A stretch of 64,000 nt of DNA from assembly GCA_951812545.1 (NCBI GenBank), contig OX638317.1, positions 2,297,848 through 2,361,847 on the forward strand, in the 5' to 3' direction. The position numbers were made by a program, and so were the translations under genes. How positions within the stretch are numbered: the stretch's first letter is position 1; each line of letters starts with the position of its first letter. Shown one piece after another: positions 37,254 to 57,511 of the stretch. Origin of the DNA: an uncultured Latescibacterota bacterium (GTDB lineage: Bacteria; Latescibacterota; UBA2968). The notes beneath the pieces are model-generated. The model saw only the letters and a program-made list of their open reading frames with translations, searched no databases and was not told where the DNA came from.

Positions 37254-37269
37254 ATTTTATTCATCACCC

Positions 37270-37613: not shown

Positions 37614-37656
37614 GAACCTGATTGAGTTGATCCCCAATTGACGTGAGGGCATCGGT

Positions 37657-38004: not shown

Positions 38005-38066
38005 TATTTGCAATTTACTCGAAAAAACCGGGGCTTTCAAGGTCATTTTTGAGTATAAAGATTATT
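38005..38066. repeat. 62-bp direct repeat, copy 2
   Basis: See 37386-37447. Here the toxin-like frame (...RIAHPFFAYNDKCLFAIYSKKPG...) ends at the TAA at 38074-38076. Confidence 0.85.
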
Positions 38067-38080
38067 ATACTCAAAATTTA

Positions 38081-38114
38081 AGACCAATCAGATAGCGATA
38101 CTGATTGGTCTTTT
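38081..38114. terminator. Bidirectional rho-independent terminator-like hairpin
   Basis: The hairpin is AGACCAATCAG-atagcgata-CTGATTGGTCT, an 11-bp perfect stem. It is flanked by AAAATTTA on one side and TTTT on the other. It lies about 65 nt downstream of the 1262-aa gene stop. Confidence 0.55.
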
Positions 38115-38178
38115 CAGGCTGATATATTAGGTCTGGTGTCACACTGAAGAAGCGTTCGCGTGATACCAGCACCAACTC

Positions 38179-41100: not shown

Positions 41101-41967
41101 GCAATGAAGTCGCCGATGGGCGTCACCGAGCTCGCGCTCGGTATCATGGGAATGGACTATCGGGATAAAATTCTCGGAGGACGCAACGAGCGTCTTGAGC
41201 GGCTCTGGAGAAGTGAAGACCGCGGCTCGGTCCTTGTATTGGCGGAGATCTTTGTTATCGAACAGACAGGCAAGAAAGGCGAGCGCCTCGTCCCGCGAGT
41301 CAGCCGCGACGTAAAAAGGCTTCTCACTCGGCTTGTCAAGCCACTCTTTGAACTTGTCCCGGTACACAGCGATCGAGGATGCGAAGATTTCAGGCGTTAG
41401 ATGAGGCTCGCTGGCGTTCGCCCAGCGGTGCCATACCCGTTCCAGCGTTTCATAGCCGCTGGTTGGGTGATTGAGTTGTTCGGCAAGCCAGATCTGCGCC
41501 GGCACCACCTGTTCCAGCCACTGCTCGAGATCGCTTGCGTCGAAAGCTCTGACTCCCTTCCAGTCGCCAGTCTCTTTCTTTTCGTTCTCCCAAGCGGTCT
41601 TACCAGGCCAGTTGCGAGGTGTCACAAAGACAAAGGTGCTATTTGCTCGTTCAGCGGAATCAACCGACTTTAGCCGATTGGAATAATCCGTCTCCGCTTT
41701 GTCACGTGGGTTCTGGTTGGTACCGAACTCCCAATAGGAGACCCCCTCAGGAATCCAAGGGTTGGAAGTGCCAGATGTGACGATACCATCGGGACCCTGG
41801 CGCTGCGCGTTGTCGTAGCCGGGAAAGTCAACTTGATGGAGGTCACGGCCTGTTGAATGAACGAGCTTTCGTAGTAAGACAGGAAGGAGGGTGCGAGCAT
41901 CGATCTGGTCTGCCCAGTTCTTGATCTGGCTTGCCTTGATGGTTAAAAAACTCGGGAGGTTGGTCAT
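38179..41967 (-). CDS. 1262-aa orphan protein: N-terminal nuclease-like module plus a long helical body
   Basis: The frame is clean, with an ATG preceded by GAAGAAGG. There is no Walker A/B motif. Residues 1-170 carry a D60...E80-F-G...K90 pattern that loosely fits an Mrr/PD-(D/E)xK layout. The remainder is helical-repeat-like. An R-N-x4-H motif (IRNSRGVH) lies about 65 aa from the C-terminus. Confidence 0.7.
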   Translation of the reverse strand: MTNLPSFLTIKASQIKNWADQIDARTLLPVLLRKLVHSTGRDLHQVDFPGYDNAQRQGPDGIVTSGTSNPWIPEGVSYWEFGTNQNPRDKAETDYSNRLKSVDSAERANSTFVFVTPRNWPGKTAWENEKKETGDWKGVRAFDASDLEQWLEQVVPAQIWLAEQLNHPTSGYETLERVWHRWANASEPHLTPEIFASSIAVYRDKFKEWLDKPSEKPFYVAADSRDEALAFLACLFDNKDLRQYKDRAAVFTSPEPLKTLVASSENFIPIVHSHDTERELGDAHRRLHCIVFRTRNAVDTKADITLDLLGYDAFNKALTAMGLERDKIERLARESGRSPTILRRRLSENAAIKMPEWARDDKTAKDLVPVAMVGTWHAESEADREIVSCVANRNYEEIEDDVARLLEFDDSPVWSSGRFHGVTSKIDALFAIARRVISADLDRFFTAAKYVLSESDPTLELAEEERWAAALRGKKRNYSNALRESICDTLVILSVHGNDLFQSRLGINVEGRVEGLIRRLLTPLTLEKLLSHDYDLPRFAEAAPSVFLNLIEEDLQSKDPIVFILLKPVDSGSLLALSRTGLLRALEYLAWKPQNLSRVSLILAQLSQQKINDNWMNKPGDSLQDIFRSWMPQTAASVRERVKVLEILIKRFPDIGWAICIAQIQPGSRTGFPSYRPRWRSDASGAGQVVTRKEIYDFERKALDLLIAWPSHDEKTLGDLIESLSRMVEKDQTKVWDLIQEWSQNATESAKAVLRERIRCSAFSRLGRQKLGEATRARTREVYESLRPHDPVIKHGWLFANPWVRELADEIEEEDFDHQKHVERIDRLRRDAMTEIWTECGFQGVKKLLADSGAAEIVGHYMSSCVTDVKSQIDFIKCCLSLDGDFQSKAEQCLQGFLVSIEEDSRAGVLQATAKELSAARVRLFVCAPFQASTWRFLDDYGEDTRSEYWRNVSPSVIRYTPAELTELIDCLREVRRPRAAFHAVQMSFKDIETARLKKLLREVVTVNAEPEGHYPPEGYSISEALDSLDSRPGVTRDEMAELEFMFINPLEYSQHGIPNLENQITESPAFFARVMALMYKRSDEGEDPPEWRIEDPKQREAAGSGAYLLLNEITKIPGTNDDGRIDGHVLAAWISEVRQLCRNYARADIGDHCIGELLAKAPAGKNGIWPCEEVCEAIEGIASTIIGEGFYSGIRNSRGVHKREEGGKQEHELVAKYRAWAEHLLFDYPFVGRVLEAVAASYERDAERWDSEAEVRKRLLY

Positions 41968-42109
41968 GGTTCATGCCTTCTTCAGGATGTGATCTCGATG
42001 GGATGCTGCTCGCCCTGCAATTTCGTCAACTCAATTACGATCAACAGATACAGCAATGCCATGTAGAAACTCCTTTTCTGCTGAGATATTGTCAAATAAT
42101 CTACGGTGT

Positions 42110-43945
42110 TTATCCATTGGCAATGAGCTTCAAGTTATCGGGATTCCAGATTTTTTGCGCTAACAACTGATATAGAGCTTGGCGTTGGTCTAAATCATCT
42201 TTTTTAAAATCGTCATGTGGCTTGAACGCAAGATTAAGCTCGTGTTGCTCCCTGAATTTTTGGAACCCGGGGTTGCGATCATAGGCATTTTTATGCAGAC
42301 TTTGGGCGAGTAGGTTTTGTCCAAAATAGTGTTCGAGCTTTTCGGAATATGGTTTATCACTAAAGCTAGCGTTGAAATCCTTGGGCAGTAGGAGAAGACC
42401 GCCGATTCTGTCACGATATTGCTCAAAATCAACTGGGTGGCTAAATTCATCATCGTGCCGCTCATACTTGTTTGCCCAGATGTGCTCTATTTCGTACCCT
42501 TTGTTATCTCTTTGGTTGTACTCCGCATAGCGGGAGGGTTTGCCTGATCCAGTTTCTACAAAGTCGGTCAGGCGTGCCAATATACGATGAATCTTTGGAC
42601 CATTCTGCTGATTTAATGAGAATGAGTTGTTGTGCATAAATGTTTCTGTATCTTCTGCGAGATGCTTAGTGAGTATCTTGGTTAGATCATCTACAGACTT
42701 TCTTCTTATGCTCCTTATTATCGGAAAAATTTTACCGCGCATGAAACTCTCGGCGGTCGACCTTCCGTTCCAAATGTGGCGCGTGATCAAGATATCAATA
42801 AATGAAGCGACTATACGAAGCTTGAGTTTAATCTCATCTTCGATATCAGTATGTCTAAGTGGTGCCAGCAACAATGGATATTGAAGCGTGAAATTATTAT
42901 TTGCATTGTAATAAATCGGTTCATATCCACCTTTTAGCCTTTCAGCCGCAAGACGAATGAAATTATACCACTTAGCATAAAAATTAAAGTCCTTAAAGAT
43001 GAAACTGAAAAAATCTGTTGGTTGGCGAAGATTTAAATCATTCTCCTGAGATCGGACCCATCGGTGGAACTCTGATCCAATATCTTCGAAGTGACTTATC
43101 TGATCAGCATACTGACTGCGTAGCCAACTCTTGATTGCATCGGCTTCTTCCTCCTTGCCAAGTTCTTGCAACTCAGAAATACGAGACCGCCAAGCATCAT
43201 TGGCATCATTACGCTTGGTAGTATCACTGATATTGGTCAAGAGATATCCTTTAAGCATATCTGTGGGTGTCAGTGAGAGACCACGGTCATTCATAGTCTC
43301 AAAAATGGTGTACGCGTCCTCATCAGAATAAGCAGTGATTTCAACGAGATGGACATTTTCTGTGAGCCAGTCAGCGAAATACGGTAGGGCATCGTTATAT
43401 TCTGATTCGCCATTTTTTACATCATTAGCGAGTGTATCTGGCAGATGAGCCTCAATGTCTTGGTAGCGGTTCAGAATATTGACAACTGACTCAGGTTTAC
43501 CTGCCTCATCAAAAGTATCATCTTGCATAAGTGCGTTCATACATGCAAGGCGTTCTGGAACATTAAGATTGAATGAATGTTCACCATACTGCACTGAAGA
43601 GATCATACTGGTAATTGACTGTCTTGCATCGGCGGGGAGTTGGTGATACAGGCTGATGAGCAGCAGCGTTATAGTTGTAATACGTTGCTGTCCATCGATG
43701 ATGAACTTTTGATTGTCCTTTTCACTGATAATGACAGACCCGAGGAAATAATGCCCGTACTTTTTGACTTCTTTGCGAGCATGGTTAGGATTATAACTGT
43801 CCAAGAATTTTTCGCACAGATCATTAATAAGCTCGATAACCTGTTTTTTTTCCCAGCGATACTCTCGTTGATAATAATCAATGGAAAACTTTTCCTCACT
43901 GAGCATGGATCGGATGTTTTTAGCATCACCGTGTATTTTTTTCAC
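42110..43945 (-). CDS. DUF262-DUF1524 (GmrSD/SspE/BrxU-like) type IV modification-dependent nuclease
   Basis: The GTG start is preceded by GAGAGGTGA. The N-terminal ParB-like DUF262 shows YYQREYRW and IIDGQQRITT. The C-terminal His-Me finger DUF1524 shows YEIEHIWA...IGGLLLLPKDFNASFSDKPYSEK. Confidence 0.85.
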   Translation of the reverse strand: MKKIHGDAKNIRSMLSEEKFSIDYYQREYRWEKKQVIELINDLCEKFLDSYNPNHARKEVKKYGHYFLGSVIISEKDNQKFIIDGQQRITTITLLLISLYHQLPADARQSITSMISSVQYGEHSFNLNVPERLACMNALMQDDTFDEAGKPESVVNILNRYQDIEAHLPDTLANDVKNGESEYNDALPYFADWLTENVHLVEITAYSDEDAYTIFETMNDRGLSLTPTDMLKGYLLTNISDTTKRNDANDAWRSRISELQELGKEEEADAIKSWLRSQYADQISHFEDIGSEFHRWVRSQENDLNLRQPTDFFSFIFKDFNFYAKWYNFIRLAAERLKGGYEPIYYNANNNFTLQYPLLLAPLRHTDIEDEIKLKLRIVASFIDILITRHIWNGRSTAESFMRGKIFPIIRSIRRKSVDDLTKILTKHLAEDTETFMHNNSFSLNQQNGPKIHRILARLTDFVETGSGKPSRYAEYNQRDNKGYEIEHIWANKYERHDDEFSHPVDFEQYRDRIGGLLLLPKDFNASFSDKPYSEKLEHYFGQNLLAQSLHKNAYDRNPGFQKFREQHELNLAFKPHDDFKKDDLDQRQALYQLLAQKIWNPDNLKLIANG

Positions 43946-43988
43946 AGATTCACCTCTCTAAGAATTCTGTTGAAAGCGATATCCTTTT

Positions 43989-44447
43989 TTAAATTTCGTC
44001 TTCGGGTTCAATACCCATCCAACAGAGCAACTCTATTTCGTCCTGATTGATCGGAGGGAGAAGCGGAGGGGGTTCAGTCGGCTCGAGGCCAGTCTCGAGG
44101 ATTTGCTCAATCAGGTAACTTGCGAGTGATGCGCCCTGGTGCTCATCCGATTCGAACCAACCGCGCAGCATGATCTCTTCGCGCCGCGGCCAGGGCGATT
44201 CCAAGATGTCGAGTGCTCGATGCACCCGTTCGTCGGACATATCTAATGGCGGATTGTCGCGGATAAACTCAGCCACGCGGTGGTTCAGTGGACACACCTG
44301 TGACTGTAAGTTCGCGGGAGACGCTTTCTCACAGACTTTCTGGATACTATCTGGACGTGTGTTCTTCACTCTCAATGAGGCGCACGTGACAGGACTTGAG
44401 TTGCCTATTATCAACGGCTGGCACAAAGCGCAGGTACGTGCATGCAA
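43989..44447 (-). CDS. Small hypothetical ORF (up to 152 aa, or 83 aa from ATG 44240)
   Basis: It is open only from a TTG. The first in-frame ATG at 44240 has no RBS. It is noticeably more GC-rich than its AT-rich neighbours. It may be a remnant or a small accessory protein. Confidence 0.3.
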   Translation of the reverse strand: MHARTCALCQPLIIGNSSPVTCASLRVKNTRPDSIQKVCEKASPANLQSQVCPLNHRVAEFIRDNPPLDMSDERVHRALDILESPWPRREEIMLRGWFESDEHQGASLASYLIEQILETGLEPTEPPPLLPPINQDEIELLCWMGIEPEDEI

Positions 44448-44494
44448 AATCGATGCCCGAACCCATCACCGCACAGAAGAACATACCGCAGTAT

Positions 44495-45607
44495 TCAATC
44501 TACAGGCGCTTCCTCATATTCTGGTGAAATTAGTCCTTCCAAGGCTTCACCAACTGTCTTGAAAAGCGGTAAATCAAGCAGATTCTCTTGTTCACTATGA
44601 GTTGGTGAAGGCAATTGGGCCATTGGCAACTCTTTTTTAGAACCTACAAATATGAACCTCTTTCTCTTTTGGGCACTACCATAATTTGCAGCATTTAAGA
44701 TGCGACTTTCAATATTGTAGCCCAGACTATTCATCTGTTCAGTTATTTCCTTGAGCAAAGAGCCTTTTTCTATTCCCCTTAGATTTGATACATTCTCCAT
44801 TACAAAATAAGGTGGAACTATCTCTTTCAGGAAACGGATAAATTCAAAAATCAACGCTCCCCGAGAATCACTGGTTCCCTTTTGTTTACCTGCTTGACTG
44901 AAAGCCTGGCAAGGGGGACCGCCATAAACTACCCGAATATCTTCGCGGGAGGTTTTGCACTTTTTAAGTAACTGCTCAGGAACAATTTCTGAAATATCCG
45001 CATTAAACACTGCCACTTTATCTTTGAAATACCCCTTTAGCGTATCGCAACGGTCTTTTTCAATTTCAACACAGGCTGTCGGCTCAAAATGACTCCCATC
45101 ATCCCCAAATTCTACACTCTCAGCAGCTATATCTAATCCTCCAGCTCCACTAAATAAACTAAGTGTCTTGAAAGTTTTCTCTTGCGGCCAGTGTTTCTTC
45201 AGAGAGATCATTAATGATTTAAATATGGCCTTGCCGAGTTCGATTGGCACGGCATCTCCAACCTGACTCTGAACACTGGTCAGAGACCCCTTAAATTCAA
45301 TATCATCTGGAAATCCCTGTAATCGTGCAGCTTCCCTCGGCGTGATAAATCGATTCTCATGAGGGTGAACAAATTTATTAAAAATATAACCCGTTACTGT
45401 TAAAGAAGGTTGGCTCGGATCAAGTCTTATGATGCGCAGATTAGGGCCTCCCTTGCGAGTAGGATCTTCTTTAACATAGTAACGAAAACTTTTATGCCAT
45501 AGTTCCTCTGGCAGATCCTGCATTTTCTGACCGATACCCAGCGCATTGATCCGTCGTTGGACCTCTATTCCAACTCTGCGAGGTTGATGATTAAAGACTT
45601 CCAGCAC
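44495..45607 (-). CDS. DNA (cytosine-5)-methyltransferase, circularly permuted motif order
   Basis: The GTG start is preceded by GAGGAG. Motifs IX/X (REAARLQGFPDD at residues 91-102, GDAVP at 117-121) come before motif I (FSGAGG, 152-157). Motif IV (PPCQ, 231-234), motif VI (ENV, 271-273) and motif VIII (QKRKR, 313-317) follow. Confidence 0.88.
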   Translation of the reverse strand: MLEVFNHQPRRVGIEVQRRINALGIGQKMQDLPEELWHKSFRYYVKEDPTRKGGPNLRIIRLDPSQPSLTVTGYIFNKFVHPHENRFITPREAARLQGFPDDIEFKGSLTSVQSQVGDAVPIELGKAIFKSLMISLKKHWPQEKTFKTLSLFSGAGGLDIAAESVEFGDDGSHFEPTACVEIEKDRCDTLKGYFKDKVAVFNADISEIVPEQLLKKCKTSREDIRVVYGGPPCQAFSQAGKQKGTSDSRGALIFEFIRFLKEIVPPYFVMENVSNLRGIEKGSLLKEITEQMNSLGYNIESRILNAANYGSAQKRKRFIFVGSKKELPMAQLPSPTHSEQENLLDLPLFKTVGEALEGLISPEYEEAPVD

Positions 45608-45622
45608 GGTCTTCTCCTCATA

Positions 45623-46897
45623 TTAAAAAGTAAATGTCGATCTGATCCATTCATCACGGGCCGAAACCTCAATTAAAGAAACAATACCATCAACGAGATT
45701 AAACAGCCTTGTATCCGGAGGCAAATCCTTAGCACGTCTCACAGTCCCCGATTCATCCCTTGTCCAAATTATATCTTTTAGTGCACTCATATACGCCTCA
45801 AAATGTCTAACCGCCGGAATATTTGTTACAATACCCACTTTGTAGTCAAATTTATATGCAGGCTTTCCTTCTGCGCCGATTTTCAGTACTTGATATGTCG
45901 CTTTTTTAAGATCATCCGTTCTATCCATACCCACACTCGTTTTACCATCAGAAATTGTCTCATAACCTATCCTCGGCCTCTTTGGCCAATCATCTGGTCT
46001 TGGATCAGGAGATCCACAGGCATTGGTAAACCAATATGGGAAATTTTTCTTACGCGTACCATAGCATTCAAAAGCGTCCTTCCAGAATCGAAAATAACTT
46101 TCAAGAAACGTGGAATCTAAGTTTAAGAGGTTGAGAAGTCCATCATATGCCCACGCTGTATCATTCTTTTCTTTTTTTATTCCCAACGGAAAAATGTGAC
46201 CATCCCAAATATTTTCATCTTGTTTGTAAATTGGCAAATATATTCCAATTTCAGAACCATAAAGTCCTGTGTGATCAGTCTCTCTATGGGATACGGTCTC
46301 TGTTAAATAATCTATCTCTTCGGTTAATTCTTGTGTCTGAACGACCAACGGCAATGTACAAAGCGGAGCAGCTTTAACCTCAGCGAAAAAGACCACTTCA
46401 GAGTCTAATGAATGATCTTGAAAAATCAAATCTACCGGCTCCGTTCCCCGTTTTATCTCAATGGATAAGCCTTTCCGATGAAACATTTCAGCCCAAAAAA
46501 GAGCTAAAAGTCTTGAAGTTGTCGCACCAATGGATCCAGACTGAGGTTTATTGGCTTTATGAAACACAAACTGATCTTTGAGTAAACATCTTGAGCAGGC
46601 ATTAATATATGGATAGAGTAAAAGCGGAGATTCTCCTTCTGGGCAATAAACCCATCCCACGTGAGCAACAGAGCCATAATATTCTGCTGCAACGAGAAGA
46701 TCAAAAGCCGCTGCCAAATGAAGGGGTTTTTCTCTTATATCAGACCTCAGACTAATTTCGTCTAATAGCTTAATTATCAAAGATTTTTCTACTTTCTCCG
46801 AATGAAATGGCTTTGTCCGGCTGAGAATTTCTTTAATCCAAGTATCGCCATCAGGATGTGGGGCAGTAGAAGAAAATAGACCGATTTGTTTAGACAT
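45623..46897 (-). CDS. Putative type II restriction endonuclease (PD-(D/E)xK)
   Basis: This is a 424-aa ORF that ends 15 nt upstream of the MTase start. A candidate catalytic motif is P154-V-D156 ... E173-V-K175 (EPVDLIFQD...FFAEVKAAP). Confidence 0.55.
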   Translation of the reverse strand: MSKQIGLFSSTAPHPDGDTWIKEILSRTKPFHSEKVEKSLIIKLLDEISLRSDIREKPLHLAAAFDLLVAAEYYGSVAHVGWVYCPEGESPLLLYPYINACSRCLLKDQFVFHKANKPQSGSIGATTSRLLALFWAEMFHRKGLSIEIKRGTEPVDLIFQDHSLDSEVVFFAEVKAAPLCTLPLVVQTQELTEEIDYLTETVSHRETDHTGLYGSEIGIYLPIYKQDENIWDGHIFPLGIKKEKNDTAWAYDGLLNLLNLDSTFLESYFRFWKDAFECYGTRKKNFPYWFTNACGSPDPRPDDWPKRPRIGYETISDGKTSVGMDRTDDLKKATYQVLKIGAEGKPAYKFDYKVGIVTNIPAVRHFEAYMSALKDIIWTRDESGTVRRAKDLPPDTRLFNLVDGIVSLIEVSARDEWIRSTFTF

Positions 46898-47096
46898 AAA
46901 TCACCCATCAAAAGGTTAAAGATTACGACAATTTACGAATATATTATACTACACGTTAGTTCACGTATCAAGACCAAAAACTTACTGATTCAAAACCCGT
47001 AACGATGGAAAAGGCCCGAAACTGGCTTAGAGAGCACGGCCAAATCCTCGAGCAGGATATCTGACGAGGATATTCAACCCCATCGACTATAGAACA

Positions 47097-48431
47097 TCAC
47101 AAGCGATTGCTCCGCATTTGATGGAGTTCTTGCGCAACTACGTCAAACGGTAATTTAAAAAAGTTGAACTGCCCATAGAGCCTTTGTAGAAGGGGATGAA
47201 GAACCTCAGCAAGATTGTCTTGTATCTGTTGCTGAGTGATCTGCCCCGTTAATATGACTTCATCTGTACTAATGGGATAGGCCCCAGAGAGTAATCGTTC
47301 TGAGTGCTGATGCCCCGTTTCAAGAAATCGCCCCTTCAGCCCCGTAAAACGGCAGTGAAGAGCAATTTGATCAACCTCTTCGAATGTTTCCGCAAAGCGG
47401 CTTGCAAATAACAATCCCTCGCCAATACGCCAAATCGGTAAAGGGATATAAAACGCACGACCAGGAGTAATGTCCCGTCTATCTTCAAGGTATCCGCGGA
47501 TGGTGTAGAGTTTTCCATCGAGAGAAGCCCGCCAGAAATCGCAAATGTGCGGATTTCCAGATGTCTGTCTATAGTATGGTCGCCCAAGCCATGATTCTAC
47601 AAAAACATCCAAAGGATATGGCCTCAATTCTGAGTTTTGTATCTCCAAGAATGGTGTCCATCCCGACAATTTGACCTGTCTCGCGATACTAAGCCGATTT
47701 CGAAGTTCGTCAAAGCCACTCATCGGTGTCGCTTCGACTAAAGAAAAAGCCATCTCGTAGTAGCCGTGCGGAAATCTCGCTGGAGAGTCATCAGGCGCAT
47801 CTAACACCAATTCCTCCCAACGATCATGGGCTGCGGTGGAGTAATCTCGGAGATCTTCAAGTACACTTGGCCTTGAGTCTTGCAGTTCTACGCGCCCCGT
47901 CATAATTGAGCGAATCGCTTCCAGCATATCGTCTCGGTTAGCCCTCAAGCAGCGATTAAACAAATTACGCCATTCTTCTGATGTCCGAGGTTCCTCGCTT
48001 TCTGGACCTGGCTTTCGAATATAGCAACGGTTTAGGGCAATGACTCCTGGACACTGGTTCTTGCTCATCACAGGTACAGTAACCGTGCCGGGGACAATGA
48101 CTACTGGATGCGACACACTCGTATCTGGGTGCAATACATTGTACATCTCACAGTGAAACCTTGGCTCGGCATATCGGCGTATTGCCGCGTTTACAGAGTC
48201 TTGTGTGATCTCGGGTATTTCCTTCGGACATGGCCCTGACACAAGGGTTTGGCCCTGATCTGCAAAGCCAATGACGATGCGCCCACCACCATGGTTGGCC
48301 AATGCGATCGCGGCCTTCGCGAGTGTTGCCCTATGCTTGTTATTCGTCAGATCTAACCAATCCTTGTACTCAGCATCAAGGTCTTCTCTCGGTTCAGTAA
48401 TAAACGGCTGTAGTTCTTCGATTGAAGCCAT
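47097..48431 (-). CDS. Schlafen/AlbA_2-domain protein with an uncharacterised C-terminal domain
   Basis: I chose the start at MASIEELQ (ATG 48431). The N-terminus (REDLDAEYKDWLDL...AAIALANHGGGRIVIGFADQG) fits the AlbA_2 consensus (E-x-L-E-F-K ... NT-GG-x-IxxG). There is no HATPase or wHTH tail. Confidence 0.7.
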   Translation of the reverse strand: MASIEELQPFITEPREDLDAEYKDWLDLTNNKHRATLAKAAIALANHGGGRIVIGFADQGQTLVSGPCPKEIPEITQDSVNAAIRRYAEPRFHCEMYNVLHPDTSVSHPVVIVPGTVTVPVMSKNQCPGVIALNRCYIRKPGPESEEPRTSEEWRNLFNRCLRANRDDMLEAIRSIMTGRVELQDSRPSVLEDLRDYSTAAHDRWEELVLDAPDDSPARFPHGYYEMAFSLVEATPMSGFDELRNRLSIARQVKLSGWTPFLEIQNSELRPYPLDVFVESWLGRPYYRQTSGNPHICDFWRASLDGKLYTIRGYLEDRRDITPGRAFYIPLPIWRIGEGLLFASRFAETFEEVDQIALHCRFTGLKGRFLETGHQHSERLLSGAYPISTDEVILTGQITQQQIQDNLAEVLHPLLQRLYGQFNFFKLPFDVVAQELHQMRSNRL

Positions 48432-48637
48432 ATTTACCCTTCTTTGGATTCTGTACAACCTGGTAATCAATCATCTGTAATAGGTTCTGCGACCACTGTG
48501 GATACATGCATACGGCTTGTCTGGACCACGCGCGATGGAAGCCGCGCGAAGCAAAGCACAAGGGCACCGTACGCACTCCGGTGGCGCGAGATAACGGAGA
48601 TTTCGTTAGAGGGCGGGGCAGGTGGTGGTCGTGGGAC

Positions 48638-49738
48638 CTACGAGGGATCAGACCCACACTCTCGGCAGGGTTGCTCTTCCTGCTCCAAGAGCTTAACCAC
48701 TGATGACGCGACCCAACGATCTGAAACTTGTAGCTGCCGCCAATCTGTAGACGACTGTGGTTGGACCTTTATTTGACTACAATCGTTCTCGTGGATCACC
48801 GCCAACGCTTCATCAAAAACGATAATCGCGGGCGATGGGGCCATTGCTGCCTCGGCGGGGACAATGACCCCCGCTCCCGGCTCTAGTGTCCTCGCGACAT
48901 CGGCGATCATCTCCGGACTGACGGACGCGACAGCGAGCCCCATCTCCAATGAATGCGGGTTTATCTCGATCTGCATATTATTCAGGTGCTGCACTAAGTG
49001 GATTACATTATTGGCCGTGAGGCTCAAGTTACCCCGTTGGAGACCTAAGACATTGACCAAAGTCTTACCGTTTTGGAAGAAGTCATCTTCGGCTTTCTTA
49101 CTACGATGAATGATCCAATTCCTGAGTAATCGCCACTCCCCCATCAGGTCAGCTTTTACATGGTGGGGGTCCACTTTCATGGCAGATGCGATCTTCGGTC
49201 GAATGGTCTCTTCCCACAGGTGATACGTAGAGACGACAAATGAGTTGGCATAGAGACGCTCGAAGTCGCCAGCATCGGCGATCGACTCGATAACTTCCTC
49301 CGCAGGCATCTCAGCGAGCACAGCGGCCTCTCTGCCGTCCGGGCGCAATGTAGTGACTCTAAGAGGCTCGCCTCGGCTGGCTAGGCGCTCTAGGTGTTCC
49401 CGCATAGCCGTTCGACTAGCCATGATGCCCACAAACCAGGTCGTCATCATCTGGCACTCTCGCGAGAACATCCGCATTGCGCTGTCGATTTCATCCTTAG
49501 ATTCGTTGCTGACCGGCGGTATACCCGTGTACATGAGAGTCAACATACCACTAGGCAAACCTATTTGGCGCATCACCGTAGCAGGTGATATGTCTCCTCC
49601 AATCCAGGTCCATTTTGTGCTCTTGCCGTCGCCACAATCAGGACATGCAATGGCGGGGCTTCCCTTTTCGAAGTCGTGTGTATGCCCACAGTCGGCACGA
49701 TAGGTACCTGGGAAAGAAAATTTTTTGCTGTCTGACAC
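48638..49738 (-). CDS. Zn-ribbon protein with a HEPN-like R-N-x3-H motif
   Basis: The GTG start is preceded by a strong AAAGGAGGGGG RBS. The N-terminal segment CGHTH...CPDCG (C17/H19, C32/C35) is ribbon-like. The central motif is EWRLLRNWIIHRSK (R206-N-W-I-I-H211). There is a C-terminal CRECG. Confidence 0.55.
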   Translation of the reverse strand: MSDSKKFSFPGTYRADCGHTHDFEKGSPAIACPDCGDGKSTKWTWIGGDISPATVMRQIGLPSGMLTLMYTGIPPVSNESKDEIDSAMRMFSRECQMMTTWFVGIMASRTAMREHLERLASRGEPLRVTTLRPDGREAAVLAEMPAEEVIESIADAGDFERLYANSFVVSTYHLWEETIRPKIASAMKVDPHHVKADLMGEWRLLRNWIIHRSKKAEDDFFQNGKTLVNVLGLQRGNLSLTANNVIHLVQHLNNMQIEINPHSLEMGLAVASVSPEMIADVARTLEPGAGVIVPAEAAMAPSPAIIVFDEALAVIHENDCSQIKVQPQSSTDWRQLQVSDRWVASSVVKLLEQEEQPCRECGSDPS

Positions 49739-50316
49739 TTATTACCCCCTCCTTTAGTCTGTACGGATGACTAGTTGCTTTGATTATAGCCATTTACTCA
49801 GGCCTAAAATTACATTAAGAGTCTATTTATTAAGATATTAAGTGTTTTGAGTTCAATGGCGATTTCCATGCCAAATGACCCACTAGTAATGCTAGTATGT
49901 TCACATTGGTTTCTTCTAAATCATAGTCATAAATGCGATAATTGCAACTTTTATTATTCGCATTTGTCGCCTCAGGGATGTGGCATATTACGATGATTGT
50001 GCATGCGGTTCGATAGCGATTGATCGATCAAATATACCAACGGTTTTGAGTGCTGATGTCAATAGTCCAATGTAGTTTTCTTAGACCCAGTCGGCAACCA
50101 TCTGATCCGGGGCGTCAAAGACAACCGATGTATCTCTGATCCCGGCGATGAAAAGCGGCTTAAACTAACTCTCATAAGACTGAAGGAGAATCTTCTCCCC
50201 TATATTTTTTAACACCTTTTCCCATACGTCTCTGTGTGGGGGACGCCGCATGGTAAACCTGTTTTCTACCTCGATAAAGTCAGACCATGTTCTTCAACCC
50301 TGTCGGGATTGACACA

Positions 50317-51189
50317 CTAAAAGCGGGAAACTTTCAAAGTTTCCATCAGATATCTACAGTTGATCCCCATTTTGTCGTCAACTGAACCTTCGCCTTCGTT
50401 TGGACGCGGGGGATCGAGATCGAGCGTGATCCATCCGTCGTAGCCTCGCGCATTCAGCATGGCCCAAATCGCAGGGTGATCGACGCCGCCGGACCCCAAA
50501 TTTTTGTACAAAATTTCCTCCGCGTGCATCTCCTTCGTCGGTGTCGGGCCAGTATAACCGCGATACGACGCCTTCGAATCCTTCCAGTGGACGGCGGCCA
50601 GTCGGTCGTAATAATCGTCGATGAGCTGAACGGGATCGCCTCCTCCGAGGTTGAGCTGTGCGGTGTCGGGAATCCAGGACACGACATCTGGGTCGGTCTG
50701 ATCAAGAAGGGCGCGAACTTCCTCAGGCCGCTCAATCGGCCCCCAGATATGCGGGTGTGGCGCGATCGTCACACCCATCTCAAGCGTTCGCTTGCCGAGT
50801 TCTGACACAGTTTCTGAGATCGCTTTGATGTCATCCGCGGTTGTTCCGTTTTGCGGGCGGCTCCCCATGTTGATCTTGAAGTGCGTGCAGCCAAAGATCT
50901 TCAGGAAATCGCGGCAAAAGGCGACGTGGTCGGCGATTGTTTCCTGACGTTTTGACCGATCGATGAATTCCATCGACTGACCGGGCCCGCCGTTCGAAGC
51001 GGTAATGAGCCGAATACCGCGCTCGTCGAGGAGAGCCTTCAGAGCTTGCGGGTCGTCGAGCCAGGCGATCAGGCCACTGCGGTAAGGTTCGACGCCCGGC
51101 AGACCGTGCTTAGCGATCAGTGCCGCAGATTCAGCGGTGAAGGCTCCAAAAATGGCGCCGCCCATAGCAAAGTGGATGTTTGATGACAC
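50317..51189 (-). CDS. Sugar phosphate isomerase/epimerase (xylose-isomerase-like TIM barrel)
   Basis: This is a 290-aa ORF with family-typical segments HFKINMG, IAPHPH, VHWKD and GYDGWITLDLD. It contains the right copy of the 36-bp repeat. Confidence 0.78.
   Translation of the reverse strand: MSSNIHFAMGGAIFGAFTAESAALIAKHGLPGVEPYRSGLIAWLDDPQALKALLDERGIRLITASNGGPGQSMEFIDRSKRQETIADHVAFCRDFLKIFGCTHFKINMGSRPQNGTTADDIKAISETVSELGKRTLEMGVTIAPHPHIWGPIERPEEVRALLDQTDPDVVSWIPDTAQLNLGGGDPVQLIDDYYDRLAAVHWKDSKASYRGYTGPTPTKEMHAEEILYKNLGSGGVDHPAIWAMLNARGYDGWITLDLDPPRPNEGEGSVDDKMGINCRYLMETLKVSRF
50584..50619. repeat. Right copy of the 36-bp direct repeat (inside the TIM-barrel gene)
   Basis: CCAGTGGACGGCGGCCAGTCGGTCGTAATAATCGTC encodes DDYYDRLAAVHW on the minus strand. 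Confidence 0.9.
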
Positions 51190-51244
51190 GATGATCTCCT
51201 GTTTGGTGATGTTGTGTATCTGGGGTGCTTTCCCTGTATCGGAT

Positions 51245-52471
51245 TCACCCCCAAACCCCCGTCGCCGTCCCCTGCACCGGAAACGCTGCCCTCAGCATAG
51301 CCACATTCTCCCTCTCTCCTACCACGACCTGCTCCACCGGCACCAACCCCAGCACCATCTTCATCACCCCATCCTGCCCGAGCTCCACCCAATCCCCTTT
51401 TCCTTCTCCCACCGTCAACCGCTCCCCATCCCACGCCAATCCAACCGTCTCTCCCCGCACGCGAAGACCGACCTCGCCCGTCGCCTGTTCCGCCATCCGC
51501 AGCCGCTCTGTCAGTTCCCCCACAATCGCCTCAAGCAACCCCCTCAGACTCAGCACCTGCAGCATGTTCCCGCCTTCCGACGACTGCCAGAGCGACGGCA
51601 CGAACCCGCAGCTCGAATCCCGATACAGATCGTATAGCGACGGGTCCAGCGGCAGCCGCGCCCTGACCGATTCCGCCCCCGCGATCGCCGCCTGACGCAG
51701 AACGTATCGCAGCGTTGCTCCAAGCGGTCGCGTATCACCCGGATCGCACGCCCCGTCGGAGATCGACACCGACGACGAAAACCGCGTATGAGGCGGCGCG
51801 TTCTGTGACGCGAAAACGTAGGCCCGGACTGCTCCGCCCACCTCATATACCACCCGCCACGGGTTCCCGGCACCCGCCCCAAACAACCGCGCTGGCTCAG
51901 CCCCCGTCCGCCCCGCATTAAACGCCGCGTAAAGCGCCTCGCACGCCGCCGCATCCCGACGTCCGTCGTACGCCCGAATCCGCGCATCCTCCTCTGGCCG
52001 ATCCAGATAGCTCACCGGATCGGTGAACCCGCCCCGCGACGTCAATCCCCGCAGCGGGAAGTCGATGTAGCCCCTCGGAAACGGCACCCATCCGAACCGC
52101 TCGTAGAACCGCCGATACCCGCCCAACCGCGACAGGGGATACCCGTCCGCCTTCAACTGCCCCACCACCATCTTCATCAACGCCGTCCCAAGCCCCTCCC
52201 CCTGACAACTCGGCGCGATACACACCTCCCCCACATCCGCCTTGGCCACGACCGCCTGCCCCACCTGAATCTCCTCCCGCCGAACATGCGCCGCCCCGAC
52301 GATCTCCCCCTCTCGCACAAGCACCCAATGCGCGTCAGTCTCCCTCGTAATTCTCTCCTTGTCGCGCTCATACTTCTCCGATCCCGGCGCCCTCCCAAAT
52401 GCCTGCGCCATTACGCGAAGGACCTCCTCCACATCCCCCACCATCGCTCGTCTGAACTCAATCTCACTCAT
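51245..52471 (-). CDS. Eis-like GNAT N-acetyltransferase with a C-terminal SCP2-like domain
   Basis: This is a 408-aa ORF. It has a GNAT core (CIAPSCQGEGLGTALM), a second GNAT-like domain and a C-terminal tail, which is the Eis architecture. Confidence 0.7.
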   Translation of the reverse strand: MSEIEFRRAMVGDVEEVLRVMAQAFGRAPGSEKYERDKERITRETDAHWVLVREGEIVGAAHVRREEIQVGQAVVAKADVGEVCIAPSCQGEGLGTALMKMVVGQLKADGYPLSRLGGYRRFYERFGWVPFPRGYIDFPLRGLTSRGGFTDPVSYLDRPEEDARIRAYDGRRDAAACEALYAAFNAGRTGAEPARLFGAGAGNPWRVVYEVGGAVRAYVFASQNAPPHTRFSSSVSISDGACDPGDTRPLGATLRYVLRQAAIAGAESVRARLPLDPSLYDLYRDSSCGFVPSLWQSSEGGNMLQVLSLRGLLEAIVGELTERLRMAEQATGEVGLRVRGETVGLAWDGERLTVGEGKGDWVELGQDGVMKMVLGLVPVEQVVVGERENVAMLRAAFPVQGTATGVWG

Positions 52472-52602
52472 TTCTCACAGGTATCCTGATTATTGAGCTC
52501 TATTTTGTTTATTTGCGAGGGGATTATCAATTGCTTTACCAGACAAGGTTTCACCTTTTGTCGTGTCGTGCTCAGGCCATTGTATGATATTGGGTTTGGC
52601 GT

Positions 52603-54060
52603 TCACGCTTCCCTTCTCTTGACTTTAACAGCCCCTGCAAAAGGTTCTTTTCCATCTTCCCATTTTCTACCCACAGGCCGCAACTGGCCATAACCCTTCA
52701 CATTGTATATGCGGCCATCGATATCTGGAATCACGTATTCCTCAAACCATGTTTCCATCTCTCCTTTGAGATCTTTCACGCGATCAGTCTGTGCCGGGTC
52801 ATCAATTAAATTGTTGCGATCATCGGGATCATTCACAACATCATAAAGCTCATTTGGTCCATCTGGATAACGATGGATATATTTCCACTCGGCGGTCCGA
52901 ATCATCCTGCAATAACCATACTCATCGTAAATGACAACACTGTCACGACCTTTTGCACACTCATTTTTCAACACGGGAAGAAACGATTGTCCTGGCAAAT
53001 TCGTATCGGGTATCGGAAGATCAACATAGTCCAAAAACGTGGGCAAAACATCATAAGCCGAAGCCATCGCCGATTGCACCGTGCCTTCTGGAATCACACC
53101 CGGGTGCGTAGCCAGGAAAGGCACCTTAATCGAATTCTCATACATATTCACCGGATCGGTTCCATTGCCTTTACCCCAAAACCCATGTTGCCCGCACGAA
53201 TACCCATTGTCAGAGGTAAACACCACAAGCGTATTTTCGCGCAACCCCTTTTCTTCAAGCTTGTCCAAAATCCGCCCCACATCCAGATCCATCGCTGTCA
53301 CCGCCGCAAAATATCCCTTCAAACTTTCGCGCTGTCCCAGATTATTGCTCAGCCCTCTCATTGACCGGGCTGGCAGATCTGCATCATCCTTAGGCACCTT
53401 TGCCCATGGATGGCGTGGTTCCTGTGGACACGTATCAAACGCACAGTCATCATAAGAATCCACAATATCCTGAGGATGACCGATCCACGGCGCGTGTGGC
53501 GCAGTATAATGAACACTCAGATAAAATGGATTTTCATCTTCTGCGTGAGCATCGATATATTCAAGCGCATCATCCGTAATCACATTCGTCACATAACCGG
53601 GCACAACCTCTGTCACACCATCGCGTATCATACTCTGATCATTATAAACTCCCGCCCCACCAGGATGCGCAAACCAGTGAGAAAATCCACATTGCGGAAG
53701 AGATGAATTGCCCAAATGCCACTTGCCCGACAGACCACATGCCCACCCATTGTCAGCCAAAACATTTGTATAACAAACTTCACCATCGAGAAAACTCTGT
53801 CCTGTAGTCCCAAAATTGGCCTGCCCCCCAATAAAATCGTGAACGCCGTGCTGAGACGGAATCCGCCCGGTCAAAAAAGAAGCCCGGCTGGCCGAACACA
53901 CCGGAATCGTCACAAAGAAATTCTCAAACCGCACGCCTGTTGCCGCCATGCGGTCGAGATTTGGCGTTCGAATTTCTGCATTGCCATAACAACCCGCCGC
54001 CCAAACAGCCATGTCATCGGCGAGAATAAAAACGATATTGGTTTTTTCTAAAGCCGACAT
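52603..54060 (-). CDS. Sulfatase (arylsulfatase A family), no signal peptide, C-x-A-x-R variant
   Basis: It has ILADDMA and the active-site segment CSASRASFLTGR, with Ala in place of the canonical Pro. No leader peptide is present. Confidence 0.85.
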   Translation of the reverse strand: MSALEKTNIVFILADDMAVWAAGCYGNAEIRTPNLDRMAATGVRFENFFVTIPVCSASRASFLTGRIPSQHGVHDFIGGQANFGTTGQSFLDGEVCYTNVLADNGWACGLSGKWHLGNSSLPQCGFSHWFAHPGGAGVYNDQSMIRDGVTEVVPGYVTNVITDDALEYIDAHAEDENPFYLSVHYTAPHAPWIGHPQDIVDSYDDCAFDTCPQEPRHPWAKVPKDDADLPARSMRGLSNNLGQRESLKGYFAAVTAMDLDVGRILDKLEEKGLRENTLVVFTSDNGYSCGQHGFWGKGNGTDPVNMYENSIKVPFLATHPGVIPEGTVQSAMASAYDVLPTFLDYVDLPIPDTNLPGQSFLPVLKNECAKGRDSVVIYDEYGYCRMIRTAEWKYIHRYPDGPNELYDVVNDPDDRNNLIDDPAQTDRVKDLKGEMETWFEEYVIPDIDGRIYNVKGYGQLRPVGRKWEDGKEPFAGAVKVKRREA

Positions 54061-54078
54061 AAAGACCGCCTCCTCTGC

Positions 54079-55542
54079 TTATTCAGATCTTCGTCCGCGC
54101 AGTTCAATCTGGTCGAGAATGATCTCTGAATGACGATCGATGAAGATAAAAGAGAAGCGGACATTGCTGACCGATTCGGCAGCATGTTCGTACTCGAGTT
54201 CGTATTTTTTCAGTTTGCTATCCACAGTTATTTCTTCAGAAGTCCAGATGACGGGGTCATTTTCGGGGGCGTGACCAAGCTGAATCTGCAACCGCGCAGT
54301 ACCGACTTCGCATCTCGCGTAAAACGAGATCCGATATATGCTGCTTTCCCGGAGTTGGATAGTGTACTTATTTGCCTGCACCTTTCCCCTTACGCGAAAC
54401 TTCCAGTCCGGCTCATATTGCTGATAGAGCGACGGTATCACCCCGCGCCCCACATCGGGGTCAAAGGTAAAAGGCACATGCACTCTGATGGCCCGTGTTC
54501 CATCTACACCTTGTCCGTCAGCAGTCCCCTTGATGGCATATTCGGATGAATTCCAGTCTGCCAAATCGAGCTGAAAGTCCGGATTGACAATCTGGTTGGT
54601 AGGCGGGACTTTGGCCAGCGGTTCTTTTCCGGTCAGGTTTTTTACCACACCTTCAACACCTGCAAATCCCCATTCTGAATTATACAGTCCGTAGGGCCAG
54701 GCATTATTGAATACACCACAGTAATACGACCATTCAATATTTCTTTTGGCAAGCTCAGGTACCATAAAGCCCGTGTATTCTTCAACATGCTTTATTTGAT
54801 GATTAAGACGTGCGCCCCATTCACTGAGATAGACCTTTTTGTTATGTTTTTTTGACCACGCATCGGCTTCTTCTAAATCTGCAAGGATGGTTTCTCTCCA
54901 GCCTGGATGATCTTTGTTGATATCCTGGTCTATTGCACCGTGGGTAAAAGGTTTGGGGTAATAGCAATGAAAGACGCCCCAAATATTGGGGTCATCGGCA
55001 AAACCGGTTCCACCCCGGAGCGTATATGAAAGATACTCTGGTGTTACATATTTCGTGAGCAGCTGCACGCCATTAAAATGCGGCCCACCAACGGCTATCA
55101 ATCTCGTTGGATTTGACCGGCGAATTTCCTGGATACACGCTGAATACCATTCCATGGTTTCAGCTTCTTCTCCGTCGGGATGTCCTGCCATTTTGGGTTC
55201 GTTAAATGCTTCAAAAATCACCTCAGCAGGATAGTCTCTATAATATTCCGCAACTTCACCCCACCACTGTACAAGGCTTTCTTTTCCCCAACAATACATT
55301 GAAAAAGGAACAACGACGATCTTTAAGCCGAGTTCCAACGCATCGTCAACTGCCGGTTTATAGAATTCCGGATTCCAGCCTTGTTTAATAAAGAAACGGA
55401 CGGAATCAAATCCGGCTTCTTTGAACGCAATATAAAAGCCTTTATCATAGGCTACTTTGTTTACTTCGGTAGCGGTAAAATCGGTATTGACACCTTTGCC
55501 GAGCGTTAAAGATCTGTTTTGTTCTGTGAAGTCCTGTGTCAT
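54079..55542 (-). CDS. GH5-like glycoside hydrolase with a C-terminal beta-sandwich domain
   Basis: It has FEAFNEPK (acid/base) and VYLSEWG (nucleophile). There is no obvious signal peptide. The architecture parallels 28298..29851. Confidence 0.7.
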   Translation of the reverse strand: MTQDFTEQNRSLTLGKGVNTDFTATEVNKVAYDKGFYIAFKEAGFDSVRFFIKQGWNPEFYKPAVDDALELGLKIVVVPFSMYCWGKESLVQWWGEVAEYYRDYPAEVIFEAFNEPKMAGHPDGEEAETMEWYSACIQEIRRSNPTRLIAVGGPHFNGVQLLTKYVTPEYLSYTLRGGTGFADDPNIWGVFHCYYPKPFTHGAIDQDINKDHPGWRETILADLEEADAWSKKHNKKVYLSEWGARLNHQIKHVEEYTGFMVPELAKRNIEWSYYCGVFNNAWPYGLYNSEWGFAGVEGVVKNLTGKEPLAKVPPTNQIVNPDFQLDLADWNSSEYAIKGTADGQGVDGTRAIRVHVPFTFDPDVGRGVIPSLYQQYEPDWKFRVRGKVQANKYTIQLRESSIYRISFYARCEVGTARLQIQLGHAPENDPVIWTSEEITVDSKLKKYELEYEHAAESVSNVRFSFIFIDRHSEIILDQIELRGRRSE

Positions 55543-55562
55543 CTGTATCTCCTGTAATGGAT

Positions 55563-57287
55563 TTAGAGAATATTGTGAACAGGAGTGAAGTGAATCGATT
55601 TTAGACTGGCTTTGCCCAAATCGCCTTCGAGACAGGAAACGTTGATTTTGTAAGTACCCGGCCCGGAAAAGTTAATCCAGCCGATGGGAAAACGCTGGTA
55701 GTTATGCGACGAATTTTGCTGATTTTGAATGTGTTCACCATTTTCAATAGTAATCCCCCAGACGAGACGCCCTTCACCTGAATAGGAGAGATCTACGATA
55801 TAGTCTCCAGGTGCAAAAACATTGACCGTCCAGGTCGCTTTGCCTTCAGGCGTCCATTTGTGAACACGGCTGACGTGTTTCCATTCTCCAAATTTTTCCA
55901 TCCAGCGTTGATTTTCCAATGTGGCATTTTCAACAACCGCAAATTCTGAAAAAATTTCGGTCTCTATTTCGGGATCAATTGCCCAGGTCGAATCGGCTTT
56001 TGGCGTGCCTTTGAGTTTGACTTCAAGAACTGAAACCAGATTATCGGGTGCCTGTGGCGATAGCTCGAAGCAGGTCCAACCGTGTTTTTTCTCAAAAGGT
56101 GTAGATTGATCGCCATTCAGGAGAGACGCAGATTCGATTTCTGTTTTGAGGCCTGGCAGATAAAGTGTGCCAGAGGCAGGCCAGTTGAAAATGCTGAGAA
56201 AGAGCGTGTTGTCTTTTACCGTCACATCTCCCCAGGGCAGGGCATGTTGCCAGGGCGATGCATCGGTACCATAGACGACCTGGGGATAGCGCCTGACCCA
56301 TTTGCCAGCAGCACGTAAAGTTCGGGCAGCTCTTTCGGGTATTGAACCGTCACCACAAGGACCTATGTTGAGCATGTAAGTGCCACCTCTGGCAACACAG
56401 GAGATCAGGCGGCGAAGAATTTCTCCGGGTGTTTTCCAGTATTCATCGTACCAGGCAAAAGCCCAGGAGTCGTTGGTGGTATCGACGCTTTCCCACATAC
56501 CTTCAACATTGGTGGATGGCACATCCATATCACCCAGCGTCTTGTAGTCGCCCAGCCCGTGCCCGGCGCGGCCTGAAACGAGGGCATTGGGTTGATTTTT
56601 CCGCACGACTTCGATGAGTTGCTCAATGTACTTTTTGGGCATTTGTCCGGGTGTGTCAAACCAGATGAGTTCGATGGGACCGTACTGGCTGGTGATTTCT
56701 TCGACCTGTGGCAGGCATTTTTTGACAAAATAATCGTCGAAGGTGGCCGGGTTGCCATCGGCATCTGTGCCTGGGCCGTTTGCCCCACCAGGAAAAGTCC
56801 AGTCCTGATTGTGAGAGTAGTAGAATCCAAATCCGAGACCGAGTTTTTTGCAGGCCCCGGCGAGTTCTTTCATGGGGTCGCGATTAAATTGGGTGACTGC
56901 ACCAATATTAAAGTCGTTGCAGGCTGAGCGATACATGGCAAAACCATCGTGGTGCTTGCTGGTGATAATGATGTATTTCATGCCCGCGTCTTTGGCCAGT
57001 TGTGCTATTTCTGTTGCATCAAAATTGACGGGGTTAAAGGTTTTCGCCATTTCCATATATTCCTCGACCGGAATATTGGCCATGCGCGGGTTCATGATCC
57101 ATTCGCCAATACCGTAGTACGTTTTGCCATCGACTTTGTTGGCAAGTTGAGCATATGGACCCCAGTGGATAAACATGGCGTAATTGCCATCATCAAAGAG
57201 TTGGCCCCGTTCTGCATTTTCAGCGCGCAGTGCAATGACATCATCGCCCCAAAGCGTGTCCATTTCTTGATTGTTGTCTTTCTGCAT
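55563..57287 (-). CDS. GH29 alpha-L-fucosidase
   Basis: I chose the start at MQKDNNQ (ATG 57287). It has YAMFIHWGPY, ITSKHHDGF and YYSHNQDW, followed by a C-terminal beta-sandwich. Confidence 0.85.
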   Translation of the reverse strand: MQKDNNQEMDTLWGDDVIALRAENAERGQLFDDGNYAMFIHWGPYAQLANKVDGKTYYGIGEWIMNPRMANIPVEEYMEMAKTFNPVNFDATEIAQLAKDAGMKYIIITSKHHDGFAMYRSACNDFNIGAVTQFNRDPMKELAGACKKLGLGFGFYYSHNQDWTFPGGANGPGTDADGNPATFDDYFVKKCLPQVEEITSQYGPIELIWFDTPGQMPKKYIEQLIEVVRKNQPNALVSGRAGHGLGDYKTLGDMDVPSTNVEGMWESVDTTNDSWAFAWYDEYWKTPGEILRRLISCVARGGTYMLNIGPCGDGSIPERAARTLRAAGKWVRRYPQVVYGTDASPWQHALPWGDVTVKDNTLFLSIFNWPASGTLYLPGLKTEIESASLLNGDQSTPFEKKHGWTCFELSPQAPDNLVSVLEVKLKGTPKADSTWAIDPEIETEIFSEFAVVENATLENQRWMEKFGEWKHVSRVHKWTPEGKATWTVNVFAPGDYIVDLSYSGEGRLVWGITIENGEHIQNQQNSSHNYQRFPIGWINFSGPGTYKINVSCLEGDLGKASLKSIHFTPVHNIL

Positions 57288-57511
57288 GTTTGTTTCCCTT
57301 TCCTGTTTTCTAAAGGTTGTCTCATAAAATGGGACGACCAAACTTTTCAAGGTAATCTTCGTGTACCATCTGCTCGTAATTCGTCATACCCTTAAGAGGC
57401 AACTTAACAGGAGCCATGTTTGGCGAGTTCGCGCATTGTCGGCAGGTGCCACTTTTGCGACGCCCTTCCGCATCCGAAAATGGCGACTTTAGCTTTCATA
57501 TCGCTAATCCC

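Follow-up and report, generated by a model that had tools for sequence, protein, structure and literature searches.

Prokaryotic Schlafen (pSlfn) proteins are anti-phage tRNases encoded by single genes and come in 55 architectures that combine the nuclease with diverse sensor domains; 17% of the fusions are unannotated (PMC13056530, PMC13552941). Examples include RorSlfn5 and EcoSlfn7 (Perez Taboada et al., Nat Microbiol 2026, PMC13056530), and an E. lactis Schlafen has an unannotated C-terminus (PMC13552941). CRISPR-associated Schlafen (Cash; CbCash, PDB 9ylu) joins its Schlafen domain to a Csx15 cA4 sensor in one protein and operates alongside type III CRISPR (PMC13462974). HEPN domains are present in stand-alone proteins (Swt1-like, RiboL-PSP, Apea, and pEK499_p136), in Csm6/Csx1 and Cas13, and in the HEPN-MNT type II/VII toxin-antitoxin pairs. 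Two adjacent genes that resemble these proteins, here termed A (HEPN-like) and B (Schlafen), are located in a 64,000-nucleotide stretch of DNA (the window) from an uncultured Latescibacterota bacterium (GenBank assembly GCA_951812545.1, contig OX638317.1, positions 2,297,848 to 2,361,847 of the forward strand). A preliminary description of this DNA had proposed that they form a two-gene RNA-targeting module. We find it likely that A and B are instead independent single-gene units, A on a mobile segment and B a pSlfn, that were joined by insertion and rearrangement in a defence hot spot.

Comparison to the described systems reveals partial likeness for both proteins. As in the pSlfn class, B possesses an N-terminal PF04326 domain, the Ex4(E/D)xK motif, and a fused further domain, and it is encoded by a stand-alone gene in a defence island; unlike the characterised pSlfn, its C-terminal domain is not Ig-like, DUF262, or HisKinase, and its family is known from sequence alone. 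The Schlafen domain of Cash is the best PDB sequence match to that of B, but B lacks a Csx15-type domain and no CRISPR locus is nearby. With the HEPN stand-alones, A has in common an all-helical core bearing a conserved R-[N/H]-x3-H motif, and its family members match several of their profiles weakly over that core; it too occurs as a stand-alone gene, at times in defence islands. It differs from them by the extra zinc-ribbon and DUF6233-like modules and by the lack of MNT, CARF, or other known partners. Like the HEPN-MNT pairs A may contain a HEPN toxin-type domain, but Pfam annotation of the neighbours identified no nucleotidyltransferase (NTP_transf) gene beside the A homologues, and clustering revealed no conserved neighbour there.

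A and B are both encoded on the minus strand. Gene A (48638..49738) specifies a 366-amino-acid (aa) protein in which an N-terminal zinc ribbon precedes a HEPN-like helical core that is followed by a C-terminal HExDC...CxxC module; its open reading frame (ORF) begins with GTG and has a ribosome-binding site, with AAGGAGGGGG just ahead of the start codon. Gene B (47097..48431) encodes a pSlfn-type protein whose homologues are nearly all annotated as PF04326. Translation from the ATG at 48431 to the stop at 47097 yields 444 aa, one fewer than originally stated, and the ORF reaches upstream to a TTG at 48470. The two genes are co-oriented and separated by 206 bp (spacer 48432..48637, minus strand), as had been reported; however, their shared orientation is uninformative because the minus strand holds every large ORF from 38179 to 57350 (∼19 kb).

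The genomic distributions of the two families do not support a pair. Homologues of A were collected from 32 loci (at least 2 kb of flanking sequence on either side in 30) and homologues of B from 87 loci (at least 1.5 kb upstream in 47). A homologue of B was present in none of the 32 A loci, and none of the 87 B loci contained a homologue of A. Clustering of the neighbouring ORFs identified no family that recurs beside A in unrelated genomes (28 loci) and none that recurs beside B beyond five closely related contigs (83 loci). The families also differ strongly in size and distribution, with 46 close matches and 544 representative clusters for A versus more than 1073 clusters for B. Because A and B were never neighbours in the other loci, the two-gene module is refuted on the terms in which it was put forward. 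Judged from these distributions, A and B are two independent single-gene units and not a conserved pair. Two other possible partnerships were rejected. The pairing of A with a 1262-aa protein, hinted at by locus L007 (described below), was ruled out since no other A locus encodes that protein; a conserved upstream partner of B was similarly ruled out, as the genes found at this position in locus L116 (514 aa) and in L117 (509 aa) are unrelated.

Two close relatives of the window separate A from B directly. L007, a Latescibacterota chromosome, is 96% identical to the window in a TIM-barrel gene and 89% identical in the gene for the 1262-aa protein; it carries these two genes and A, without B, the restriction-modification (R-M) pair, or GmrSD. 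Conversely, in L116 a homologue of window positions 50249-49986 is joined directly to B, followed by genes for a 424-aa endonuclease and a 370-aa methyltransferase, all without A. The B, endonuclease, and methyltransferase genes of L116 share 87-94% nucleotide identity with those of the window. The homology breakpoint with L007 is at 48539, inside the spacer, and positions 48435-48538 are absent from L116. Thus, the proposed module is contradicted by a locus with A only, a locus with B only, and a breakpoint between the two genes. The adjacency of A and B, the lack of a terminator-like site in the spacer, the nuclease-type signatures in both proteins, and the placement of both genes in a defence island are features that would be expected if A (HEPN) and B (Schlafen) formed one co-transcribed RNA-targeting defence module with one protein sensing or regulating the other. 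Given the failure to find them together in any sampled locus, the disparate families, the position of the breakpoint, and an orientation common to the whole ∼19-kb region, we regard such a module as very improbable. Near-identical relatives resolve the A/B pair into separate insertions, and two nuclease-like genes that lie side by side in a defence island are no evidence of a system.

The sequence upstream of A suggests how the arrangement came about. Positions 49991..50239 (minus strand) match, by tblastn, the C-terminus of a DnaA_N-type replication-initiator-like gene (84% identity over 83 aa) and represent a pseudogene remnant with two in-frame stops. In L116 the intact 514-aa initiator-like gene (4445-5989, PF11638) ends 11 bp ahead of B and adjoins ParA-like genes. 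The remnant suggests a plasmid-like or integrative element as the carrier on which B and the R-M pair arrived. According to this scheme, B would have arrived with the type II R-M pair on a mobile element, now a remnant, that once bore the initiator gene just upstream, and the A segment would then have inserted between the initiator remnant and B. It is because the counterpart of the remnant (50239-49991) is intact beside B in L116 that we propose this order, with B and the R-M pair travelling on the mobile backbone and A inserting between the initiator gene and B.

A scan for promoters and terminators gave zero matches in the spacer, and across 46800-50400 such matches were no more common than in shuffled sequences. 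RNA folding of the spacer was modestly better than that of shuffles (z = -2.1). A search of the spacer for traces of two features seen at other B loci, the 65-aa upstream gene and the HigA-like helix-turn-helix (HTH), found neither.

Gene A appears to be carried by a discrete unit. The comparison of blastn boundaries and the alignment of junctions delimit a ∼1.2-kb single-gene segment (48539..49775, minus strand) with 81-96% nucleotide identity between Dehalococcoidia and Latescibacterota metagenome-assembled genomes. Its homology starts at window position 49775/49774, at ACTAGTCATCCGTACAGACTAAAGGAGG, 37 nt ahead of the start codon, and this 5' boundary (CTAGTCATCC) is identical in approximately nine otherwise unrelated contexts (loci L004-L011, L113, and L114). 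The 3' end is staggered, with the homology stopping between 48644 and 48539 depending on the locus. The A homologue in L113 adjoins Gabija-like and type I R-M genes, and insertion sequence (IS) elements are found on both flanks of the gene in L001/L002. A search for repeats around the segment revealed no terminal (inverted) repeats and no target duplications, and tblastn of A against phage genomes gave no match. An integron gene cassette was ruled out by the junction sequences (ACTAGTCATCC at the boundary), which show no GTTRRRY and no inverted repeats at the ends; the attC-type repeat and GTTRRRY core are both absent from the junctions, although no search for an integron integrase was made. 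As a separate observation, five Dehalococcoidia loci share an extra ∼50 nt upstream of the segment.

These features invite a broader interpretation, namely that A represents a new HEPN-type family (∼540 clusters) whose 366-aa sub-family resides on a promoterless ∼1.2-kb segment with a precise 5' end that inserts repeatedly and crosses between Chloroflexota and Latescibacterota. We consider this full combination quite unlikely. If it were true, the repeated insertion of such a segment at unrelated sites, defence hot spots among them, would suggest a still undescribed way in which single defence or toxin genes are moved.

The assignment of B as a Schlafen protein was supported by several approaches. 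The nuclease domain of the Schlafen/AlbA_2 type (approximately residues 13-141; 48009..48395, minus strand) was identified by Pfam, Foldseek, and profile matches. B matched Pfam SLFN_AlbA_2 over residues 17-141 with an E value of 2.8e-9 and 38 bits (cut-off 25.3). Foldseek of its AlphaFold2 (AF2) model (predicted local distance difference test score, pLDDT, of 77) retrieved the AlbA_2 domain 2kyy, SLFN13 5yd0, and SLFN11 7zel with probabilities of 0.92-1.0. A profile of 39 B homologues matched CbCash 9ylu over residues 9-140 at E 4.8e-5. The N-terminal part reads ...EPREDLDAEYKDW...ANHGGGRIVIGF, including EDLDAEYKDW, and contains the motif E16-x4-E21-x-K23 (48363..48386, minus strand), of which E16, E21, and K23 are invariant in the 39 homologues; this Ex4(E/D)xK motif is reported to be catalytic in SLFN11 and pSlfn (PMC13056530). 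The previously noted AlbA_2/Schlafen opening of the protein is therefore upheld, by Pfam above threshold and by Schlafen structures in Foldseek, and we agree that the HATPase/winged HTH tail is missing. The C-terminal part, described earlier as an unrecognisable region of ∼300 aa, has no Pfam match; its unassigned domain comprises ∼250 aa (approximately residues 190-444; 47100..47864, minus strand). It is modelled as an alpha/beta region with pLDDT mostly 85-93, so that a single polypeptide is predicted to fuse the nuclease to an additional domain. Foldseek of these residues returned only TBP and AdoMetDC at low probability (≤0.28).

The B family is large and widespread. It comprises more than 1073 clusters, and the 120 best homologues listed are full length, 57-85% identical, and nearly all annotated as PF04326. 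Plasmid genes of Asticcacaulis, Sinorhizobium, and Haloarcula are among its members. Homologues of B adjoin type ISP/MmeI R-M genes, OLD-like ATPases, toxin-antitoxin (TA) pairs, and an integrase. From the Schlafen domain, the motif, and the literature on pSlfn, we therefore file B under the pSlfn single-gene anti-phage class as a predicted new member. By analogy to that class, tRNA would be its substrate and phage sensing would be the task of its C-terminal domain. Alternatively, B could be a DNA-binding regulator or another non-immune AlbA_2 protein and not an anti-phage nuclease. Such a role would fit the database names of homologues ("putative DNA binding domain-containing protein" or "ATP-binding protein"), the HigA-like HTH at the N-terminus of some of them, the finding that 30% of pSlfn genes are away from defence genes, and the protection of E. 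coli by only two of the seven pSlfn systems assayed (PMC13056530). The invariance of the Ex4ExK motif in the 39 homologues and the direct juxtaposition of B and several homologues to R-M, OLD-like, TA, and GmrSD genes argue against it, and we judge a non-immune function improbable.

Additional genes accompany parts of the B family. Some family genes (L029 and L031, 6798-6995) have a 65-aa gene (MIKNERQY...) located 5 bp upstream, and the 65-aa gene is fused in frame to B in one database protein (from the set P0077, P0082, and P0114). Other members bear an N-terminal HigA-like HTH_3 domain; both features are absent from the window. The 65-aa gene and the HTH_3 domain hint that part of the family has an antitoxin-like or regulatory partner. 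In L030 (7001-9731), a second, distinct SLFN_AlbA_2 protein (398 aa) is encoded 200 bp downstream of the B homologue, with Eco57I-type R-M and AAA_21/DUF3226 genes nearby.

The classification of A relied on weaker but recurrent similarities. The previously listed motifs were all present: C16-G-H18...C31-P-D-C34, R206-N-W-I-I-H211, and C358-R-E-C361-G. The first of these is part of an N-terminal CxH...CPDC zinc-ribbon-like motif (residues 16-34; 49637..49693, minus strand) that matched Zn_ribbon_8 at E 0.01, below the gathering cut-off; the ribbon is confined to the 366-aa sub-family and is missing in the divergent 327-aa members P0042-P0046 (alignment A1). The helical core (approximately residues 146-253; 48980..49303, minus strand), a probable HEPN-superfamily domain, is composed of AF2 helices with pLDDT 74-87 and includes the Rx4H motif R206-N-W-I-I-H211 (49106..49123, minus strand), in which R206 and H211 are invariant in alignment A1. 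The C-terminal module, H316-E-x-D-C320...C358-x-x-C361 (48656..48841, minus strand), is DUF6233-like; residues H316, E317, D319, C320, and S321 are invariant in the same alignment, and four of seven A-family C-termini gave sub-threshold matches to DUF6233 (PF19746), with E values from 5e-4 to 0.04. Gene A itself had no significant match in Pfam, NCBIfam, or PADLOC apart from the weak zinc ribbon.

None of the 46 close homologues of A is annotated in Pfam, and an exhaustive profile search at E ≤ 1e-3 yielded the 544 representative clusters. Most family members are only 200-250 aa in length and share profile positions ∼130-252 alone. In 63 homologues with 20-50% identity to A, W175 is invariant and G157, R180, R203, R206, and H211 are at least 90% conserved, in agreement with the reported LLRNWIIH HEPN signature. 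The family consensus, LMGDxRxxR[N/H]xIxH, is the top conserved feature, and nearly all members have N or H at position 207. For a protein of this composition, ∼1.9 generic Rx4-6H motifs are expected by chance and three were observed, of which only R206/H211 is conserved in the family; the strict RNxxxH form is expected ∼0.02 times.

Profile scans of the 63 members pointed toward the same superfamily. HEPN_Swt1 was matched by six members (best E 0.0027) and RiboL-PSP by four (best E 0.016), with single matches to pEK499_p136 (E 0.026) and Apea (E 0.17); HEPN families were the only Pfam families matched by more than one member. The matches span 50-80 residues around the motif, and P0224 alone matches four HEPN families over residues 113-194. 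When family members were scanned with PADLOC, seven of the 13 families matched were HEPN-bearing, specifically CARF_HEPN (0.0014), Cas13a twice (0.00068), a Csx20-type CARF_HEPN, Cas13d, Csm6 (0.015), and RTasHEPN. Other searches did not extend these relationships: the majority consensus of the A-family profile A3 gave zero matches to Pfam, and a homology search with the A3 profile recovered known close relatives only, with no bridge to annotated HEPN proteins. On balance, it is fairly probable that the core is a HEPN-superfamily domain, and A is predicted to have RNase activity. We propose that A would act as a homodimeric, metal-independent RNase by means of R206-N-x3-H211, that its zinc ribbon and DUF6233-like HxxDC...CxxC module may bind nucleic acid or a trigger, and that it would move between phyla on the ∼1.2-kb segment. 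For B, we propose by analogy with characterised pSlfn and Cash proteins that recognition of a phage cue by the C-terminal domain would release tRNA cleavage and so shut down translation.

Several points weigh against this interpretation of the locus as two independent units with these functions. As the spacer has no terminator match, A and B may be co-transcribed in the source genome; such read-through from A into B would be incidental. Some A homologues (L003 and L114) reside among housekeeping genes, and a defence role for A is thus not general. All of the HEPN matches by A-family members in Pfam and PADLOC were below the curated thresholds. Foldseek of the A model, of moderate confidence (pLDDT 67), returned no HEPN structure from PDB or BFVD (best E 0.5 and 0.25), and the A3 profile gave zero matches at E ≤ 10 to PDB sequences. 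Because Foldseek detected no HEPN fold, the HEPN-like nature of A is taken as probable and not as proven; thus, of the initial HEPN call, the conserved motif and the weak, recurrent profile matches are in its favour and the structural comparison is not. Finally, the C-terminal region of B is a presumed sensor or regulatory domain purely by analogy, as it has no family assignment.

The lack of a structural HEPN match and the sub-threshold profile scores could also indicate that A is not an RNase. The helix containing the R..H motif might bind nucleic acid, or the protein might aid the spread of its segment as a homing or recombination factor, with the HEPN likeness reduced to a short shared motif. 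The two zinc modules that flank the core, the 5' end of the segment that is fixed in unrelated contexts, its spread across phyla, and the IS elements around the gene in L001/L002 would be compatible with such a function. However, the HEPN matches extend beyond the motif alone and recur in two independent libraries, and the broader family of 200-250-aa proteins has only the core in common, without zinc modules. Moreover, terminal inverted repeats and target duplications are absent around the segment, and A has no likeness to transposase or recombinase families in Pfam, NCBIfam, or PADLOC. We consider a non-RNase role unlikely and continue to favour a HEPN-type RNase encoded by a unit independent of B. 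The initial domain calls were thus largely right for B and plausible for A, whereas the inference of a two-gene module was not.

A weak 203-aa homologue of A, WP_207806734.1, is encoded by the Pantoea ananatis conjugative plasmid pOC5aB (L119, 4935-5546). The protein carries the A-family signature (MWDESFRHRIA...LMGDLRKIRHCIIH), and its gene is part of a plasmid defence island, located between SIR2, retron-type HNH/ATPase, and RES genes. The A family is an unannotated HEPN-like family for which this Pantoea ananatis homologue offers a culturable, tractable representative. B adds a large, widespread sequence family (>1000 clusters, in bacteria and on haloarchaeal plasmids) to the newly defined pSlfn class, and a new phage sensor may reside in its C-terminal domain. 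Neither point alters current understanding, and the locus represents ordinary defence-island content.

The genes surrounding A and B show the region to be a defence island, with PADLOC identifying, within 5 kb of B, both a type II R-M pair and the GmrSD enzyme. Downstream of B are, in order, a type II restriction endonuclease (45623-46897, minus strand; PADLOC REase_II, 2.6e-103), a C5 cytosine methyltransferase (44495-45607, minus strand; PADLOC MTase_II, 3e-82), a GmrSD type IV enzyme (42110-43945), and the 1262-aa protein (38179-41967, minus strand). The first two are syntenic with B in L116. The last belongs to no Pfam or NCBIfam family and has a faint match to PD-Lambda-4_A (E 4e-4). Upstream of A is a 580-bp AT-rich stretch and then the xylose-isomerase-like TIM-barrel gene. 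Searches with Rfam gave zero matches in 36000-52000, and no tRNA genes were found in the window. The order of blocks in the window (41967-50317) is TIM, Y, Z, A, B, endonuclease, methyltransferase, X, GmrSD, and the 1262-aa gene; in L007 (5671-13595) the order is TIM, X (equivalent to window 44487-44075), Y (50095-49892), A, Z (49886-49776), and the 1262-aa gene. Judging from this difference in block order, the locus is a recombination and insertion hot spot, and the region is a rearranged mosaic of defence genes acquired independently.

Other observations concern the neighbouring genes. The 1262-aa protein is encoded directly downstream of A in L007 and a 29%-identical relative is found near a B homologue in L048; both placements look coincidental. 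The C5 cytosine methyltransferase looks circularly permuted, with the normally C-terminal QGFPDDIEF motif near residue 95 and Pfam profile positions 1-182 aligning to residues 146-342, and the 370-aa form is retained in L116. Between the methyltransferase and GmrSD genes, a 152-aa ORF (43989-44447, minus strand) corresponds to the C-terminal portion of a 280-aa ORF in L007 (6656-7498) that opens with the end of a Helicase_C domain; both ORFs look like pieces of a decayed helicase gene.

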